The translations under genes and the position numbers were made by a program. The notes under the pieces are model-generated. The model was not told the origin of the DNA, searched no databases, and saw only the letters and a program-made list of their open reading frames with translations. Shown piece after piece: positions 1 through 9,565 of a stretch of DNA of 15,366 nucleotides (position 1 is its first letter; each line of letters starts with the position of its first letter). Source of the DNA: Escherichia coli. Its GTDB lineage: Bacteria > Pseudomonadota > Gammaproteobacteria > Enterobacterales > Enterobacteriaceae. The stretch lies in NCBI RefSeq assembly GCF_003334315.1, contig NZ_QOWR01000075.1; one strand, given 5' to 3'.

Positions 1-105
1 ATTATATCGAATGTGATTACAATCGGTGGCGGCGGCACAGTTGGTGTGGCGGCCTCAGTCCGGAACAATTTGAAAACAAGAACCTCGCTTAGGCCTGTGT
101 CCATA

Positions 106-459
106 TTACGTGGGTAGGATCAGATCAGGAACAGCTTTAACAGTAGCTTCTTGTTGTGTCTTGGCTTCTTGTCTAGCTTCTTCTTGTGGAATATCTACCA
201 CTTGATAGACATTAGAACTTCCTGGTCGTGCATCTTTTATAATTAACCCCATTTCGAGCAATTTCTTAACCCTTTCCTCTGCTGCTCTTGGTGTTATGCC
301 AAAAACATCGCCTATCTTAGCGTAAGAGGGAAATGCACGATCAAACCCTTTCAGATAGCAGTAAAGATTTTTAGCACTATCTGTAAATTTATGCCCGTTT
401 ACTTGGCTTATTTTTAGAATCCACATAGGAACTTTTACAAATTGTTCTTCATTAATCAT
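106..459 (-). CDS. small winged-helix/HTH DNA-binding protein, 117 aa from ATG 459 (the ORF track shows a GTG-extended 125 aa form reaching 483)
   Basis: Open frame 106..483. The ATG at 457-459 is preceded by AAGGAG (467-472) 7 nt upstream, while the GTG at 483 has no SD. The pattern VPMWILK..AKNLYCYLKGF..FPSYAKIGDVFGITPRAAEERVKKLLEMGLI resembles the HTH_36 / initiator-type winged helix of phage and plasmid proteins (from memory, not searched). The tail is acidic and Q-rich. Confidence 0.6.
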   Translation of the reverse strand: MINEEQFVKVPMWILKISQVNGHKFTDSAKNLYCYLKGFDRAFPSYAKIGDVFGITPRAAEERVKKLLEMGLIIKDARPGSSNVYQVVDIPQEEARQEAKTQQEATVKAVPDLILPT

Positions 460-512
460 TAAAAATCTCCTTGATGTAATCACGCTCTATGGCGCTACTA
501 TGGTGATAAAAA

Positions 513-683
513 TCACTTGCTTTTATTTGAGAGTGTTTCAGCCTCTCTTTTCAACATATCAAGAATGTAATCTGTGACAGTGATACGTCTACTTCTGGCT
601 TCTTTAAATAACACCTGAAATACTTCATCAGGAATATGAAAGCAAGTGCGTGGTTGTCTTTTCTTTTCTGTAGTTTCGCTCAT
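513..683 (-). CDS. 56 aa ribbon-helix-helix-like (Arc/CopG/MetJ style) protein, MSETTEKKRQPRTCFHIPDEVFQVLFKEARSRRITVTDYILDMLKREAETLSNKSK
   Basis: Not in the ORF track because it is under 60 aa; I translated it by hand. ATG at 681-683, TGA at 513-515, AAGGAG at 690-695 (6 nt spacer). The basic N-terminus followed by beta-strand-like FHIPDEVF and then two helices is the RHH layout. It lies between two other same-strand genes with short gaps (19 nt to the upstream gene, 53 nt to the downstream one). Confidence 0.55.
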   Translation of the reverse strand: MSETTEKKRQPRTCFHIPDEVFQVLFKEARSRRITVTDYILDMLKREAETLSNKSK

Positions 684-702
684 AGTTTTCTCCTTCTATT
701 CT

Positions 703-891
703 TTACTCTGTTTCAGATTCTTTTTCATTTTTTCTTAATTCATCAATAATCTTGAGTGCTTCATTGAAGCAAGCTGCTCGCTCTGGATAACCTCGACTCC
801 TTGCCATATTACGATTCATTACTATTTGGTGGCGTGTAAGCTCACCTTTTTTAAATGCCGCGACAACGTGTTCCGATGTGAACCATTTCAT
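703..891 (-). CDS. 62 aa hypothetical protein, first gene of the three-gene operon
   Basis: ATG at 889-891 with AAGGAG at 898-903 (6 nt spacer); TAA at 703-705. I recognise no family. The C-terminus is helical and charged. Confidence 0.55.
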   Translation of the reverse strand: MKWFTSEHVVAAFKKGELTRHQIVMNRNMARSRGYPERAACFNEALKIIDELRKNEKESETE

Positions 892-1001
892 AAAAAACTC
901 CTTATTCAGTTAAAAGAAAAACACCTTGCAAGCCTGACGGCTTCAAAGTGCATTGATTTTGATTATTTAGAGAAGAATGTTTTTCTGTCCCTCTAATACC
1001 T

Positions 1002-1030
1002 ATTATTACATATAAAGAAACATTTGTCAA
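1002..1030 (-). promoter_or_regulatory. sigma70-like promoter for the 891->106 operon
   Basis: On the minus strand: TTGACA (1030..1025), 17 nt spacer, AATAAT (1007..1002). This predicts a leader of about 100 nt before the ATG at 891. Confidence 0.45.
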
Positions 1031-1122
1031 TACCTTTTCACAAAAAATCTGATCTTTTTCATGTACTTACATTTTTTCTTAGCAATTCGTGCTCTTCTGT
1101 GTAGTGCTATTCTTCCTTATTG

Positions 1123-1151
1123 TCTAAAACGCTCTAAAACGCGTTCTAACG
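1123..1151 (+). repeat. tandem 10-mer TCTAAAACGC x2 plus a degenerate third copy
   Basis: Perfect copies at 1123-1132 and 1133-1142, with a partial copy TCTAACG at 1145-1151. The related AAAACGCTCT recurs at 1287-1296. Confidence 0.6.
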
Positions 1152-1567
1152 AGGTTTTGATAAAAGCAATACATTCCCTTATGTAATGGCTGTTTAGCTC
1201 GCCAGAGGCTTATTTAAGGGGCTTATTTTGTATTTGTTAGGTATATGAAAAGGTGATGGTAGATATAAGATAGAGAGTCACTTTATAAAACGCTCTGTAA
1301 AGCCCTGTAGTGAGTTTATATATGTAGGCAATGCGTTTCCATTCCCTACCCTGCTTAATGCTGTTAGAGAAGCATTTAGACCCCTTATTTTTAATTACCT
1401 AAAGTATCCTCTATACATTCCTGTTATGAAACACCTCTGAATCCTTCATAAAACACATTATGACGCAAAGAACACTTTTCTAAGGTGATTCCCTTCCTGA
1501 ATGCTGTTTCTTGCGTCAAAGAGCTACACAGAGCTTATAAAGCTATTATTAATAATAAAGTAGACAA

Positions 1568-1620
1568 AGTAAGTAAGATAAGTAAGTAAGATAACTAAGA
1601 TAGATAAGATTAATAAGATC
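1568..1620 (+). repeat. TAAG/TAAGAT microsatellite-like tract
   Basis: Perfect 13 bp tandem AGTAAGTAAGATA at 1568-1580 and 1581-1593. TAAGAT hexamers start at 1574, 1587, 1596, 1605 and 1614 (spacing 13, 9, 9, 9 bp). Confidence 0.75.
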
Positions 1621-1629
1621 AGAATTCTC

Positions 1630-1661
1630 TTTCGGTGTCGCCTCTGGCTTTTCCACCGAAA
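1630..1661. other. 8 bp stem hairpin / dyad (TTTCGGTG ... CACCGAAA, 16 nt loop)
   Basis: Arms at 1630-1637 and 1654-1661 are perfectly complementary. There is no U-tract on either strand, so it is not called a terminator. Confidence 0.4.
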
Positions 1662-1663
1662 AC

Positions 1664-1828
1664 AATTACACAACTACAGAGAATAACGAGAGTTATTAAA
1701 TGTAGAAAGTGGAATTGTATTGAGGCTTAGTGAAATTACACGAGGAAAGCAGAGTGTAATTGAGCTTTAGCCGCTCTCTCTTCGAGTAATTACACAACTA
1801 CAGAGAATAACAGAGTTATTAAATGTAG
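1664..1828 (+). repeat. pair of 42/41 bp direct repeats (1664-1705 and 1788-1828) bracketing an AATTACAC/GTGTAATT inverted pair
   Basis: Both copies read AATTACACAACTACAGAGAATAAC(G)AGAGTTATTAAATGTAG and are identical except for a 1 nt indel. Each contains the dyad AATAAC-N3/4-GTTATT. Between them, AATTACAC (1734-1741) and GTGTAATT (1754-1761) form a perfect 8 bp inverted repeat. Confidence 0.9.
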
Positions 1829-1889
1829 GAGGGTAATTAAGAGTTAGAGAGAGTTAACACATAAGCAATCAGTATGATTGGTTAGGTGA

Positions 1890-2070
1890 TTACTCTTCTG
1901 CGCACAGCGCAATAGTATTTCTTCGTGGGCGTTACCGCCAACGATAGTTACACGAAGAAAGTAACGCTTTGCTTTCGGTGTGAGCGGAACGGGCCAGCCA
2001 CGAAGCCCAAAGGTAGCGGAGTAAGGCTGCTTGCCAGAGAGTGAAGCTAACGCCGGAAGGCAAAAGATCA
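1890..2070. ncRNA. candidate structured RNA (or gene relic): a GC-richer, hairpin-dense patch inside very AT-rich DNA
   Basis: Perfect 10 bp helix TTTCTTCGTG (1918-1927) / CACGAAGAAA (1951-1960), enclosing GGCG-TTAC-CGCC (1928-1939). An alternative pairing is GCGTTAC (1929-1935) with GTAACGC (1961-1967). Other hairpins: TGCGC-ACA-GCGCA (1899-1911), GGGC/GCCC (1991-1994/2005-2008) and TTGCC/GGCAA (2031-2035/2059-2063). The overlapping 75 aa minus-strand ORF has no SD. Strand is undetermined. Confidence 0.3.
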
Positions 2071-2128
2071 TATAAATAAATATATAATATTATAATTTAA
2101 TAAGTAATTTAATAAATGATCTAATAGG

Positions 2129-2262
2129 TAACAGAATTCTGTGGGGGTGTCTAACAGTTTTCTGTGGGGGTGTCTAACAGAATTCTGTTAGGGTGGGGTA
2201 ACAGAATTTTGTTAGGGTAAAAATCTCTTTAAAAGTTAAGATTAACAGAATTCTGTGGGGGG
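2129..2262 (+). repeat. array of 5 dyad sites TAACAG-N4-CTGT(TA), each followed by a G-run
   Basis: Copies at 2129-2147, 2152-2170, 2175-2198, 2199-2218 and 2243-2262 (start spacing 23, 23, 24, 44 bp). The core ACAGAATTCTGT is a perfect 12 bp palindrome, and the copy at 2175 is a perfect 16 bp palindrome, TAACAGAATTCTGTTA. Confidence 0.9.
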
Positions 2263-2325
2263 TAGCTCACAGTGACCTACCCCCTAGTTCACTATGACCT
2301 ACCCCCCTAGGTCACAGTGACCTAT
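2263..2325 (+). repeat. iteron triplet A (22, 23, 18 bp units: TAGCTCACAGTGACCTACCCCC / TAGTTCACTATGACCTACCCCCC / TAGGTCACAGTGACCTAT)
   Basis: Head-to-tail direct repeats at 2263-2284, 2285-2307 and 2308-2325. The preceding G-run and the first unit form the inverted repeat GGGGGTAG ... CTACCCCC. Confidence 0.9.
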
Positions 2326-2383
2326 ATAGTATAAAGAATATTATTTATATTATTTAATTATAGTATTTAATTATAGTATTGGT
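2326..2383. repeat. extremely AT-rich spacer with a perfect 13 bp tandem TATTTAATTATAG x2 (2351-2363, 2364-2376); DUE-like
   Basis: Read directly from the sequence. It is flanked by the iteron and dyad arrays. A second AT-rich tract (2072-2128) carries the 11-mer TAATTTAATAA twice (2093-2103, 2105-2115). Confidence 0.7.
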
Positions 2384-2483
2384 GGAACTCATTTCCTAGG
2401 TAGGTAGGAACTAATTTCCTAAGTAGGTAGGAAACCACTTCCTAGGTTACTTCCTAAATAGATCGGAAATCATTTCCTAGGTG
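2384..2483 (+). repeat. array of 4 dyad sites GGAA-N5-TTCC followed by TAGGT/TAAGT
   Basis: Sites at 2384-2396, 2407-2419, 2430-2442 and 2465-2477 (start spacing 23, 23, 35 bp). There is a lone TTCCTA half-site at 2451-2456. Confidence 0.9.
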
Positions 2484-2501
2484 TTATTTATACTTATCGG
2501 G

Positions 2502-2556
2502 TATCAGTTTTGATAGGGGTATCAGACTTGATAGGGGTAACAGAATTCTGTGGGGG
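2502..2556 (+). repeat. array of 3 dyad-plus-GGGG units (TATCAGTTTTGATAGGGG, TATCAGACTTGATAGGGG, TAACAGAATTCTGTGGGGG)
   Basis: Units at 2502-2519, 2520-2537 and 2538-2556, with an 18 bp period. The TATCA..TGATA arms differ from the TAACAG..CTGTTA arms by symmetric (compensatory) changes in both half-sites. Confidence 0.9.
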
Positions 2557-2619
2557 TAGTTCACTATGACCTACCCCTAGTTCACTGTGAGCTACCCCTA
2601 GTTCACTGTGAGCTACCGT
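2557..2619 (+). repeat. iteron triplet B (3 x 21 bp TAGTTCAC(T/A)(G/A)TGA(G/C)CTACCCC)
   Basis: Units at 2557-2577, 2578-2598 and 2599-2619. They have the same orientation and family as 2263-2325. The module [TAACAGAATTCTGT + G-run + 3 iterons] is therefore duplicated (2243-2325 and 2538-2619). Confidence 0.9.
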
Positions 2620-2711
2620 TACATCCAATCATCTGTCGATGTAACATATCGTTACTACCAACTTTCTTACAAAGAGCATTTCAGATAGCTGAATGTAACC
2701 TCTCGTTACAT
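2618..2711. repeat. four GTTACAT heptamers arranged as two dyads
   Basis: GTTACATC (2618-2625) / GATGTAAC (2638-2645) with a 12 bp spacer. ATGTAAC (2693-2699) / GTTACAT (2705-2711) with a 5 bp spacer. There is an extra CGTTAC at 2650-2655. Confidence 0.8.
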
Positions 2712-2732
2712 CCATTTGTCACATAGCACTCT

Positions 2733-3208
2733 GTGTAATGCCTTTCTATGTGTGTGCCATAATCCCCCTATATTCCCTGTGTAAATCATAGAATAATGCT
2801 CTCTATTCCCTGTGTAATTCCCTACTAAAAATCAATGAAAAAGTAGCTTAAAGTTGCAATTCTTACTTTCTTCACTTTTACATCACTTTCGCAAAGCCTT
2901 GTGTAATGCGGCTTACAGAGCACCATCAGAAATTGTTGGCTAAAAATTATTCTGCTTGTTTCTGAACGAGTTTTCTCGTTTGTGCAAATTTTAAAATTTA
3001 TTTTGTTTTTACAGCCTTATTTCGTGTAATGCGTGGCATAGCAAGCCCTTTTCTTGTGTTGTCAAGACATTTGGCAACGTTCAAACATCTGTTTAGAAAT
3101 GCCAAATTGTTGATCTAACAAATAAACCTGTATAAACAGAACACCATTTAATCTATTCCCCTGTGTATCCATTAGGCATACCAAATGAATACAGCTAAAT
3201 CGTGTAAT
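2733..3208 (+). repeat. field of GTGTAAT-containing motifs, including the perfect 14-mer TATTCCCTGTGTAA x2
   Basis: GTGTAATGC at 2733, 2901 and 3024; GTGTAAT at 3202. TATTCCCTGTGTAA at 2771-2784 and 2804-2817 (33 bp apart). Variant TATTCCCCTGTGTA at 3154-3167. Related ATTCCCTTATGTAAT near 1173-1187. CCCTGTGTA on the minus strand at 4604-4612. Confidence 0.8.
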
Positions 3209-3281
3209 ATTCCGTACCCATAAGGCTTGAAACAGACCAAATGAATACGGTATACTCATTTGCATTTAAGTAGTGCCAAAT
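3069..3281. promoter_or_regulatory. res-like recombinase-binding region (CCAAAT-containing half-sites) upstream of the serine recombinase gene
   Basis: CCAAATGAATAC at 3181-3192 and 3237-3248. An imperfect inverted partner GTATACTCATTTG lies at 3250-3262. TGCCAAAT is at 3100-3107 and 3274-3281, with its complement ATTTGGCA at 3069-3076. The arrangement resembles the multi-subsite res regions next to tnpR-type genes (established layout; the assignment here is inference). Confidence 0.4.
3227..3256 (+). promoter_or_regulatory. sigma70-like promoter of the recombinase gene, overlapped by the repeated half-sites
   Basis: TTGAAA (3227-3232), 18 nt spacer, TATACT (3251-3256). The CCAAATGAATAC repeat lies within the spacer, which suggests autoregulation. 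Confidence 0.45.
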
Positions 3282-3301
3282 CGACACATTAAGAGGATTT
3301 T

Positions 3302-3841
3302 ATGAGCAATATCGGTTATAAGCGTGTGAGCACTGTAGATCAGAACACTGATCGCCAGCTTGCAGGAGTAACTCTCGATAAAGTCTTTGAAGATAAGCTG
3401 TCTGGTAAAGACACTAACCGCCCAGGCTTACAAGCGTGTTTAGCCTATCTGAGAGAAGGCGACACCTTACACGTGCACTCTCTCGACCGTTTAGGACGTA
3501 ACACCTTAGACATCCTTGCTTTAGTTGAACAACTTAATAATCGAGGTGTAATTGTTCGATTTCACAAAGAAGGAATCATTGCAGACATTACAAGCGCGAT
3601 GGGAAAGATGATGCTTACGATGTTGTCGGCAGTTGCAACGTGTGAACGTGAACTGATGTTAGAACGTAAACGAGAAGCGCAAGCCGTCAATCCTACAAAA
3701 CGTGGTAATGGAAAAGCAGTGGATCGAGAAGGTATAAAGAAAGCCCTTTCTGATGGCCTGTCAGTGCGTAAAACCGCCGAGAGCTTTAATGTTGCTCCTT
3801 CAACGGTGCAACGTATCAAGAAGGAAGAAGAGGAGGCGTAA
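3302..3841 (+). CDS. small serine recombinase (resolvase/invertase family), 179 aa
   Basis: N-terminal GYKRVSTVDQNTDRQ carries the catalytic-serine motif (YxRVSTxxQ). DRLGRN and the SAVATCERE helix are present. C-terminal HTH: GLSVRKTAESFNVAPSTVQRIKK. RBS AAGAGGA at 3291-3297. Confidence 0.9.
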   Translation: MSNIGYKRVSTVDQNTDRQLAGVTLDKVFEDKLSGKDTNRPGLQACLAYLREGDTLHVHSLDRLGRNTLDILALVEQLNNRGVIVRFHKEGIIADITSAMGKMMLTMLSAVATCERELMLERKREAQAVNPTKRGNGKAVDREGIKKALSDGLSVRKTAESFNVAPSTVQRIKKEEEEA

Positions 3842-3849: not shown

Positions 3850-4058
3850 TGATATTTGAGAATTGTCGCTGCGTGGACCTGACGGCGCTGATCTTCTCGT
3901 TAAGCGATGATCACGTATGCGCCGATTTCAGAGAAAAAGACAGTAACTGAACTCACTATGAAGGCTAAACGTATCTTTACACTTGATGAAAACGTTCAAA
4001 AAACAACCTAACCCCAAAATTCAACAAATTGCAACACATTGTTTTTAAAAGAAAATTA

Positions 4059-4182: not shown

Positions 4183-4341
4183 ATGCATTTACTTTCAAAA
4201 CATCTTCACACTATTCACTTTCTCGTTATTGATGTATTCGTTGTGGCTATTAGTTACCGCATTTGCATCGCTTCCAGTGAAGAGATGGACGCTGTTGCAA
4301 TTATTGCTCAAGCAATGGCGATATTAACTAAACGACTTTAA
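4183..4341 (+). CDS. 52 aa hydrophobic mini-protein, MHLLSKHLHTIHFLVIDVFVVAISYRICIASSEEMDAVAIIAQAMAILTKRL
   Basis: Translated by hand (below the track cut-off). GGAGG at 4173-4177, 5 nt before the ATG at 4183; TAA at 4339-4341. It has a promoter upstream and a hairpin downstream. The hydrophobic core suggests a membrane peptide. Confidence 0.4.
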   Translation: MHLLSKHLHTIHFLVIDVFVVAISYRICIASSEEMDAVAIIAQAMAILTKRL

Positions 4342-5166: not shown

Positions 5167-5242
5167 TGGTGCCGATAATAGGAGTCGAACCTACGACCTT
5201 CGCATTACGAATGCGCTGCTCTACCAACTGAGCTATATCGGC
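5167..5242 (-). tRNA. thrW: tRNA-Thr (anticodon CGU)
   Basis: The reverse complement reads GCCGATATAGCTCAGTTGGTAGAGCAGCGCATTCGTAATGCGAAGGTCGTAGGTTCGACTCCTATTATCGGCACCA. It is 76 nt with an encoded CCA, a CGT anticodon in the loop and a GGTTCGA T-arm. Confidence 0.97.
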
Positions 5243-5287
5243 CCTGAAAGGACATGTTCACGAACGTGAATCACGGTGGACAAGGTT

Positions 5288-5351
5288 AAAACTAACCGGG
5301 CGATGCGTCAATGGCCTTGTGAATCAAATGGCTACTTTTGCATCACCCGGT
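5288..5351 (-). terminator. long-loop hairpin plus T-run downstream of proA, overlapping the likely thrW promoter region
   Basis: ACCGGGCGATGC (5295-5306) pairs with GCATCACCCGGT (5340-5351), with one G-U. On the minus strand it is followed by TAGTTTTAA. Confidence 0.35.
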
Positions 5352-5356
5352 TTTAT

Positions 5357-6610
5357 TTACGCACGAATGGTGTAATCACCAATGCCGATCCACTTGTAAG
5401 TGGTCAGTGCTTCCAGCCCCATTGGGCCACGCGCGTGGAGTTTTTGTGTGCTTACCGCCACTTCCGCACCCAGACCAAACTGGCCGCCGTCGGTAAAACG
5501 CGTAGAGGCGTTAACGTAAACAGCGGACGAATCCACTTCGTTAACAAAACGCTGGGCGTTGCGCATATCGCGGGTCAGGATCGCATCGGAGTGTTGTGTG
5601 CCGTGTTCACGAATATGGGCGATGGCATCGTCAAGATCGCTGACGATTTTGACGTTCAAATCTAATGACAGAAACTCATCGTCATACTCTTCGGCTTTAA
5701 CAGCAACCACCTTCGCAGGGCCTGCCTGCAACTGCGCCAGTGCAGCTGCATCTGCGTGTAATGTCACGCCGCTTTCCGCCATTTGTTTGCTTAATGCGGG
5801 CAGGAAGCTATCGGCGATGTTTTTATTCACCAGCAACGTTTCAACCGTATTACATGTGCTCGGACGCTGAGTTTTCGCGTTGACGATCACTTTTAATGCT
5901 TCAGCGATCTCTACACTTTCATCAACGTAAATATGGCATACGCCTATACCACCTGTGATCACCGGGATTGTCGACTGTTCACGGCACAGTTTATGCAAAC
6001 CAGCGCCACCACGCGGGATCAGCATGTCGATGTATTTATCCATACGCAGCATTTCACTGACCAGCGCACGGTCAGGATTATCAATCGCCTGCACGGCACC
6101 CGCCGGTAAGCCACAGGATTTCAGGGCGTCCTGAATCACCGCCACCGTTGCCGCGTTAGTGCGACAGGTTTCTTTGCCACCACGCAGGATCACCGCATTA
6201 CCGGTTTTCAGGCACAGCGAAGCGACATCAACCGTCACGTTCGGGCGCGCTTCATAAATCACGCCAATAACCCCCAGCGGTACGCGACGACGCTCAAGAC
6301 GCAGGCCGCTGTCCAGTACGCCGCCATCGATTACCTGCCCCACCGGATCGGCGAGGTTACACACCTGGCGTACATCGTCGGCAATGCCTTTCAGCCGTGC
6401 GGGCGTCAGTGCCAGACGGTCAAGCATCGCTTCGCTAAGGCCATTGGCTCGCGCGTCAGCAACATCCTGGGCGTTAGCGTTGAGGATGATTTCGCTTTGT
6501 GCTTCCAGTTCATCGGCGATTTTTTCCAGCACGCGATTTTTTTCGCGGCTGGAGAGTTGCGCTAATTTATACGAGGCTTGCTTCGCGGCAATGCCCATTT
6601 GTTCCAGCAT
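5357..6610 (-). CDS. proA: gamma-glutamyl phosphate reductase
   Basis: 417 aa; sequence recognised as E. coli ProA ([21 protein letters not shown]...). It follows proB with an 11 nt gap. Confidence 0.97.

Positions 6611-9106: not shown

Positions 9107-9565
<459 letters not shown>

Follow-up and report, generated by a model that had tools for sequence, protein, structure and literature searches.

A gene-free 2.4-kb block with stacked iteron arrays: the probable replication and control region of a satellite-like island at thrW in Escherichia coli

Here we describe a 2.4-kb block (positions 892–3301) that separates a leftward operon from a serine recombinase gene in a 15,366-nt stretch of Escherichia coli DNA (assembly GCF_003334315.1, contig NZ_QOWR01000075.1; the whole stretch is called the window throughout). 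Probably the block serves in cis for the replication and control of an integrated phage-satellite-like island, the right end of which lies in the window at the tRNA-Thr(CGT) gene thrW (5167–5242, minus strand), with proA and proB beyond it. An initial annotation of this DNA had seen a large cis-acting machine in the block, and a non-coding cis-acting region is indeed conserved across the island family, but it resolves into ordinary parts of known kinds: a promoter, iteron origins with A+T-rich unwinding elements, and a res site. What is unusual is their arrangement, in that the origin lies far from the initiator gene, five specificities are stacked in one place, and one motif is held in common with the terminal repeats of virulent phages.

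The repeat arrays lie in the centre of the block (2070–2710) and fall into two modules. The first begins with A+T-rich element 1 (2070–2128; 91.5% A+T over 59 bp), the presumed DNA-unwinding element for the A array, which stands directly 5′ of the A iterons (TAACAGAATTCTGT followed by a G-run; 2129–2265). Four of these are in tandem at 23–24 bp (2129–2221) and one more lies at 2243; three B iterons of 21–23 bp (TAGYTCACWRTGASCTA; 2263–2324) complete the module. The second begins with A+T-rich element 2 (2325–2383; 89.8% A+T over 59 bp), presumed to serve the C and D arrays and placed directly 5′ of four C iterons (TAGGAA-N5-TTCCTA; 2384–2482) at 23–35 bp. These are followed by 2.6 D iterons (GGGTATCAGnnTTGATAG; 2499–2544; period 18, 89% matches in Tandem Repeats Finder), a single A unit at 2538, and a second set of three B iterons (2557–2617) at 21-bp spacing (95% matches, score 108). 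Both modules end in one A unit and three B units, and after the second come two E dyads (GTAAC-N5-GTTAC; 2641–2709, starting at 2641 and 2695), for which 0.01 were expected by chance. All five repeat cores are palindromes. Tandem arrays of at least three repeats at about two helical turns are formed by A, by C and twice by B (21–23 bp), and an A+T-rich element directly adjoins an array at both 2070–2128 and 2325–2383. The repeat families listed in the initial annotation were all recovered, far above chance expectation, and the spacing of about two helical turns given there agrees with the 18–24 bp between units in most arrays; the D family is an addition to that list.

The putative initiator is the third product of the leftward operon, which also encodes a 62-aa and a 56-aa protein; the sequence pattern of the latter resembles that of ribbon-helix-helix proteins, a likeness that no family search confirmed. 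The initiator in the window, which we call Rep-alpha (106–483, minus strand), comprises a lambda-O-like winged-helix N-terminal domain and matches PHROG families labelled ‘replication initiation protein’ or ‘O-like’ (E-values of 5e-8 to 3e-4). At 125 aa it is shorter than its relatives (194–217 aa), and we regard the gene as truncated because a multi-copy insertion sequence, whose end occupies positions 1–122, cuts it off after 125 codons. Window positions 1–520 match 4348 E. coli records, 3603 of them at ≥99% identity, with a median of three places per genome and up to 17; among the matches listed, none to the island's own sequence reaches left of 123, and relatives stop aligning at 123–125. 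In full-length initiators the N-terminal, winged-helix-like domain varies, whereas the C-terminal ~95 aa form a domain that is nearly invariant.

The identity of the N-terminal domain predicts which array is present. In 27 distinct elements, for which we typed this domain and counted the arrays, we distinguish five initiator types, none of which is ever found without its own array. Four A units in a run accompany Rep-alpha in nine of nine elements and occur in none of the 18 others. Rep-beta is found with runs of two to five B units (TAGTTCACTGTGAGCTA) in all nine of its elements, Rep-gamma with four C units (GGAA-N5-TTCC) in five of five, and Rep-delta with runs of two to three D units (TATCAGnnTTGATA; TATCAG-N2-TTGATA) in both of its elements. 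For the two elements that fell outside types alpha to delta a new array was predicted and then found: both carry Rep-epsilon, lack A–D, and have four exact GTAAC-N5-GTTAC dyads, the GTTACAT dyad family of the initial annotation. This association is not simple linkage, because the intervening ~1.6 kb exists in two versions and alpha, beta and gamma are each found with either of them, always together with the cognate array, even though the two versions have different left blocks and 62-aa proteins that are only ~62% identical. The array follows the type of the initiator, not that of the 56-aa protein. Since initiator type predicts array, we infer that the arrays are initiator-binding sites. In the window the A array is cognate to Rep-alpha, and the B, C, D and E arrays are non-cognate; sites for five specificities are thus present where only alpha is encoded, and that in broken form. 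The initial annotation held that the trans-acting factors are mostly not encoded beside the block. This is right for the initiators of four of the five arrays, but not for Rep-alpha, whose TAACAG array lies ~1.6 kb to the right of its gene at 106–483, nor for the recombinase, which adjoins the block with its own three-part site.

We read 2070–2710 as a set of initiator-dependent origins because of this covariation, the lambda-O-like domain layout, the palindromic cores, the A+T-rich neighbours and the distance of the arrays from the operon promoter (1.1 kb). In the mechanism that we propose, dimers of the variable N-terminal winged-helix domain would bind the cognate array, the bound initiator would melt the adjoining A+T-rich element, and the conserved C-terminal domain would then recruit host replication proteins. 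The closest parallel in layout is the lambda origin, where four palindromic repeats at about two helical turns likewise stand beside an A+T-rich stretch; lambda O too has a specificity-determining N-terminal and a conserved C-terminal domain, and related lambdoid elements also differ in their initiator–iteron specificity pairs. In contrast to lambda, several specificities are stacked in one element, and the initiator is only distantly similar to O proteins (PHROG E-values of 1e-5 to 1e-11). The islands known as SaPIs and PICIs resemble this one in being small and integrated, with their own initiator and an iteron and A+T-rich origin whose specificity varies between islands. PICI initiators, however, are of primase/helicase type with the origin directly 3′ of the gene, whereas here the initiator is a small winged-helix protein and the control region extends over 1.5–2.4 kb and carries arrays for non-cognate initiators. 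The satellite P4 also has initiator-binding repeats spread over separate non-coding sites (ori and crr), but it uses a large primase-helicase (alpha) and octamer repeats, with no sequence or protein similarity to the island.

The right end of the block is occupied by what appears to be the target of the adjacent recombinase. This gene (3302–3841, plus strand) encodes a small serine recombinase of the resolvase/invertase family (Pfam Resolvase, 1.1e-33, plus HTH_7 and HTH_38), with best matches among solved structures to gamma-delta resolvase (4e-29, residues 2–175), Tn3 resolvase (4.5e-28) and the Gin invertase (4e-26). Upstream of it we predict a res-like site of three subsites (3165–3287) that ends 14 bp before the ATG: site I (3165–3192) of 28 bp (12+4+12), a 22-bp gap, site II (3215–3248) of 34 bp (12+10+12), a 3-bp gap, and site III (3252–3287) of 36 bp. 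Six copies of the half-site GTATTCATTTGG make up the site (3165+, 3181–, 3215+, 3237–, 3252+, 3276–), and the recombinase promoter (TTGAAA-18-TATACT; 3227–3256) lies inside it. A second recombinase subfamily (63% identical) keeps site I and the spacing from site I to site II while using a different half-site, GTGGTGATTTAG.

The 28-bp site I, 22-bp gap and 34-bp site II are those of Tn3 and gamma-delta in the general literature, and these systems too have a third site immediately before the recombinase gene, with the promoter inside. The island differs in having no nearby transposase or transposon ends, and its half-site sequence is unrelated and not the same in the two recombinase subfamilies. 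Because no transposase accompanies the recombinase in the window or its relatives, we regard the pair as a stand-alone resolution module: the recombinase would resolve replicated multimers at 3165–3287 and repress its own promoter, so that multimer resolution of a circular replicating form, together with autoregulation, is its likely role. That the recombinase is instead a DNA invertase and the block an invertible segment is suggested by the label of its best PHROG family (‘DNA invertase’, E = 1.3e-54) and by a short Hin/Gin-like half-site (AGGTTTTGATAA) that can be picked out by eye near the left end of the block (in the stretch called U1 below). We reject this reading as highly improbable because no inverted pair of crossover-like sites surrounds any part of the block and every relative is collinear with the window; in addition, the half-sites are clustered directly upstream of the gene in the three-subsite layout typical of resolvases, and the gamma-delta and Tn3 resolvases score slightly above Gin.

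A different use of the same protein–site pairs has to be weighed, namely that the arrays are operators of an immunity or transcription-control region and the winged-helix protein is a repressor or activator. Public sources name the protein ‘transcriptional regulator’, its Pfam helix-turn-helix matches are generic and below the cut-off, the island has no obvious separate repressor gene, and covariation of protein and site proves specific recognition, not replication. Against operators stand the positions of the arrays, 1.1–1.7 kb from the only strong operon promoter and at least 550 bp from the recombinase promoter, and the 59 bp of ~90% A+T that directly precede the A and C arrays, as would be typical of unwinding elements. 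Among protein families, O-type replication initiators and DnaD-like loaders match best, and a res site alongside fits a replicon. We therefore consider operators an unlikely explanation of the arrays.

Several observations besides the public name of the protein weigh against reading the block as a replication region. Homology of the initiator to replication proteins is moderate (the Pfam match below cut-off is to HTH_36), and comparison with solved structures gave no match below an E-value of 0.2. Its AlphaFold model, at a mean pLDDT of 51, is too poor for a test of the fold; the predicted succession of secondary structure in that model, a helix-turn-helix plus a wing, is suggestive. The arrays begin 1.6 kb from the initiator gene, past two small genes and ~1.2 kb of non-coding DNA, and are not inside the gene as in lambda; no helicase or loader gene, such as a counterpart of lambda P, was identified in the island. 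Between 892 and 3301 there is no consensus DnaA box (TTWTNCACA), only near-matches of the ATTACAC type. Some relatives (L006, L041) have only two B units, few for an origin. The 12-bp spacer of res site III compares with 1 bp in site III of gamma-delta. Finally, 1235–2070 (~1 kb) and 2710–3160 can be described, as below, but lie outside the parts that we have decoded.

The presence of arrays for absent initiators can be explained by recombination at a junction common to the family. Relatives differ by whole modules, with breakpoints near 2126, 2281, 2557 and 2641–2686; simpler relatives have a single module, which in nearly all of them closes with the same junction, one B unit and CGTTACATCC (the two Rep-epsilon elements are without the B unit). 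The likeliest source of the non-cognate arrays is recombination between sibling islands at the A+B junction that these have in common. The extra arrays may be debris; alternatively, they may have a use among co-resident siblings, in that sibling initiators would replicate the island in trans or the island would titrate them; more than one island is present in ~100 genomes. Extra arrays outside a minimal origin that can titrate initiator, or pair with initiator-bound origins, are found in incA of P1 and incC of F, but these bind the plasmid's own initiator, whereas the extra arrays of the island match the initiators of sibling islands only. The composite origin suggests that related mobile elements may exchange, share or compete for initiators, a subject little explored in phage satellites. 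The idea that the iterons were copied from helper-phage origins was rejected for known phages: degenerate A and B patterns run against IMG/VR hit only the island family and four single palindromic chance sites.

The absence of genes from the block is a property of the whole family. In 17 distinct relatives the equivalent intergenic region, between the 62-aa gene and the recombinase gene, measures 1.5–2.4 kb and contains no conserved open reading frame (ORF) of at least 50 aa, and it persists where the flanking proteins are only ~62% identical. Of 730 matching E. coli records, nearly all are without any PGAP annotation under the match. The window's block has no stop-free stretch longer than 81 aa, and indels of 1 and 10 nt among relatives fall inside conserved stretches. 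The two minus-strand ORFs that the initial annotation had listed and dismissed do exist; that at 1844–2071 is broken by 1-nt indels in relatives and that at 3062–3265 overlaps the res site. A 41-aa hydrophobic ORF at 1061–1186, tried as a small toxin, was rejected, its frame not being conserved and relatives showing a 10-bp indel. Decay of former protein-coding genes might be suspected from the sheer length of the block and from a patch (1886–2069) of gene-like composition (53% G+C) with a 75-aa ORF. Yet six-frame translations of the block have no family match in PHROG or Pfam, so no frameshifted remnant of known genes is apparent, and ordered arrays and conserved blocks persist across subfamilies. 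Among deposited phages a single match of 46 nt was found, at the core of U1, and in the plasmid collection only partial matches on two records, covering 17–32% of the block; one of these records, being 4.9 Mb long, is probably a chromosome. In agreement with the initial annotation, which had argued for a gene-free block and against pseudogene decay, we find a gene remnant very hard to credit.

At its left end the block starts with the promoter and 5′ leader of the leftward operon (892–1035, minus strand). The promoter (TTGACA-17-AATAAT with an upstream TG; 1030–1002) is near-consensus, with 11 of 12 matches. The leader contains a palindrome (922–950; CACCTTGCAAGCC-N4-GGCTTCAAAGTG, arms of ~12 bp) that could be an operator or an RNA hairpin. 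Every subfamily retains the –35 element and the palindrome, the latter varying only in its centre.

About 100 bp upstream of this promoter lies block U1 (1082–1235), conserved in every relative and holding two tandem copies of TCTAAAACGC (1123–1142). A 10-bp (one-unit) deletion in one relative (L003) and a frame change in another (L031) argue against coding. T5-like phages share a U1 core of 28–46 nt, located in untranslated DNA of their terminal repeats, with 27 of 28 nt matching in Klebsiella phage KPN4 (E = 1e-7) and 19 of 20 in inverted repeat B′ of T5. An nhmmer profile of U1 finds KPN4 (1.8e-8) and three copies in T5, including a full-length U1-like copy at 9257–9302 (1.6e-4) beside a DnaA-box cluster; every phage of T5 size (107–123 kb) among the 40 matches listed is matched at query coordinates 40/41 to 86–89. 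Davison (bioRxiv 10.1101/866236) describes these terminal-repeat regions as conserved, dense in repeats and without a known function. They resemble the block in being kilobase-scale ORF-free DNA dense in direct repeats, inverted repeats and palindromes, with the shared core (CTAAAACGC..TTCTAACG..TTTTGA; ~28–46 nt) and repeated ATTTGCAC-like motifs in both. Only the short core can be aligned with the T5-like repeats (inverted repeats B/B′, Repeat Region 3), however, and the block, which lacks the paired DnaA boxes and LexA-like palindrome of T5 (no perfect LexA box occurs in it), belongs to a chromosomal island and not to a virion terminal repeat. U1 might be a regulatory site that responds to a helper, but this is no more than a reasonable guess.

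The terminal repeats of T5-like phages hold two or three U1-like copies each (T5, 9257–9302, 5277–5337 and 6189–6215; KPN4, 3997–4046), and one copy directly adjoins the cluster of DnaA boxes and LexA-like palindrome that has been proposed as an injection stop signal. A phi92-like phage also has a weaker copy, in intergenic DNA. In phi92-like phage ESCO32, 1.77 kb among early genes (63091–64864; 23091–24864 of the stretch that we retrieved as L069) is without annotated protein or tRNA genes and contains a 19-nt match (18 of 19) to inverted repeat B′ of T5.

The remainder of the left kilobase, between U1 and the arrays, is dominated by hairpins and tracts. A long hairpin at 1461–1520, read from the sequence (arms of ~13 bp, TGACGCAAAGAAC and GTTTCTTGCGTCA), occurs throughout the window's subfamily but not in the other one. 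The AAGTAAGAT/TAAGAT tract (1567–1619; 79% A+T; periods 9 and 13 in Tandem Repeats Finder), with TAAGAT at 1574, 1587, 1596, 1605 and 1614, varies in length among relatives by indels of 4–9 nt. At 1664–1835 two ATTACAC hairpin units surround an ATTACAC-N12-GTGTAAT dyad; these are the 41/42-bp direct repeats of the initial annotation, perfect over 24 + 17 nt (1664/1788; 100% identity), but the full 41-bp repeat is peculiar to the window, relatives lacking 19 bp of the first copy. GTGTAAT stands here at 1665, 1735, 1754 and 1789; in the other subfamily the corresponding position is taken by ATTGCAC. To the right of the arrays, blocks U2/U3 (2700–2940), conserved in every relative, carry GTGTAAT at 2733, 2812 and 2901, all on the plus strand. 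In total, 13 copies occur in the window, nine of them in the block, against 2.06 expected for the whole window; GTGTAAT/ATTACAC is thus strongly enriched and flanks the origin in opposite orientations, without being a consensus DnaA box. We suggest that 1082–2070, with the T5-shared block, the ATTACAC sites and the hairpins, may be regulatory or accessory DNA.

The left kilobase ends in a GC-rich hairpin cluster (1886–2071) that adjoins A+T-rich element 1 and is a candidate single-strand initiation signal or small structured RNA. It folds on both strands, as RNA (z = –3.5 on the plus and –1.8 on the minus strand) and as DNA (z = –3.9 and –3.2), so that the folds cannot tell one from the other. 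The initial annotation had allowed that the block might produce RNA, and one could suppose that part of it, above all 1620–2075, is transcribed into structured non-coding RNA, a P4-like immunity RNA or a primer RNA, as the main function of the left kilobase. Satellite P4 offers a precedent for RNA-based immunity. The plus strand of 1860–2075 folds better than 200 of 200 shuffles (z = –3.5), most of the 1-nt indels that relatives show in the cluster appear, judged by eye, outside predicted stems, and the other subfamily keeps the first hairpin (TGCGCACAGCGCA) and has a different one in place of the second. Such a pattern would suit an RNA, but both DNA strands fold about equally well, as palindromes would, and the window form of the patch is absent from half of the family. 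A long RNA helix in the other subfamily was also rejected, one arm of its 30-nt inverted repeat having diverged without compensation. Rfam 15 gave no match in the block at the gathering score (only tRNA-Thr, outside it) and nothing better than E = 1.1 in 700–3400, hence no family even at E ≤ 5; we saw no promoter-like site in 1035–2130 and a single weak terminator-like site (1899–1911). The better-than-shuffled fold apart, little remains of the RNA-producing reading, and we doubt that a non-coding RNA is the main product of the left kilobase, which we continue to regard as possible regulatory or accessory DNA of the replication region.

The wider element can be seen in a full-length relative, that of E. 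coli GPEC128-620 (L001, 6556–19214), which measures ~12.5 kb. It encodes, in order, a tyrosine integrase, a Dit-like tail protein, a 609-aa tape-measure-like protein, a lambda-E-like major capsid protein and several small proteins without assignment, then a 217-aa protein of the replication initiation/O-like PHROG, two small proteins, 2.4 kb without an annotated gene, and the serine recombinase, beyond which lies thrW. No portal, terminase, protease, primase or helicase was recognised among its proteins, and this relative lacks the hallmark genes of P4-like satellites (alpha with sid/psu), PICIs (a primase/helicase-type Rep) and capsid-forming PICIs (a capsid module with small terminase). Our literature search returned nothing relevant on a satellite at thrW or on satellites of T5-like or phi92-like phages, and this satellite-like island family is apparently undescribed.

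The family is common in E. coli. The 730 records that match the block do so at a best identity of 94.5%, and its most conserved part (U2/U3) is present in 739 of 5426 complete genomes (~14%), at up to four places per genome. A scan with one genome per species yielded four loci, two in Escherichia and two in metagenome bins labelled Bacillota, the latter probably mis-binned contigs. About one in seven complete E. coli genomes thus carries an island of this family, in which annotation pipelines leave a control region of 1.5–2.4 kb blank; decoding it gives a testable map of five initiator–iteron specificity pairs, two unwinding elements and one res site.

The closest homologues of the island's tail proteins belong to phi92-like phages: the Dit-like protein is ~60% and the tape-measure-like protein ~35% identical to proteins of phi92-like (Justusliebigvirus) myoviruses of ~146–150 kb. 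Together with the T5-like motif, these tail genes suggest that the helpers may be virulent phages, a group for which few satellites are known, and the family may be an undescribed satellite family of such phages. One can go further and speculate, tentatively, that the stacked non-cognate arrays are functional, as ‘orphan’ origins for sibling initiators, either allowing a copy with a dead initiator to be replicated in trans by a co-resident sibling or starving rivals by titration; that U1 senses infection by a virulent helper and couples it to the operon; and that together these features mark an unrecognised satellite family parasitising large virulent phages. The last element is proposed because the tail genes resemble those of phi92-like myoviruses. 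If true, this would be a satellite family with a social network at the level of its origins.

The thrW locus itself is a site of stacked elements. In GPEC128-620 the island shares the locus, in tandem, with a truncated second integrase and an island that carries the vat autotransporter (L001, 686–6239). Prophage Sp1 of O157 Sakai was considered as a representative of the same element and rejected: it is an unrelated lambdoid remnant with cI, cro, O, P and pinE, and the mitomycin C (MMC) induction data of PMC2669165 are therefore not applicable to the island.

The module of initiator, non-coding block and recombinase also occurs inside a different island (L002, 10264–19982) with another integrase and a GmrSD restriction gene. 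That island sits between two copies of the thiM TPP riboswitch and has an IS5-like element in place of the structural genes. On the far side of the recombinase gene, a 52–55-aa ORF (4183–4341, plus strand, in the window; 4249–4416 in L057) is kept in both subfamilies without a family match; it is seemingly hydrophobic and could encode a small membrane protein.

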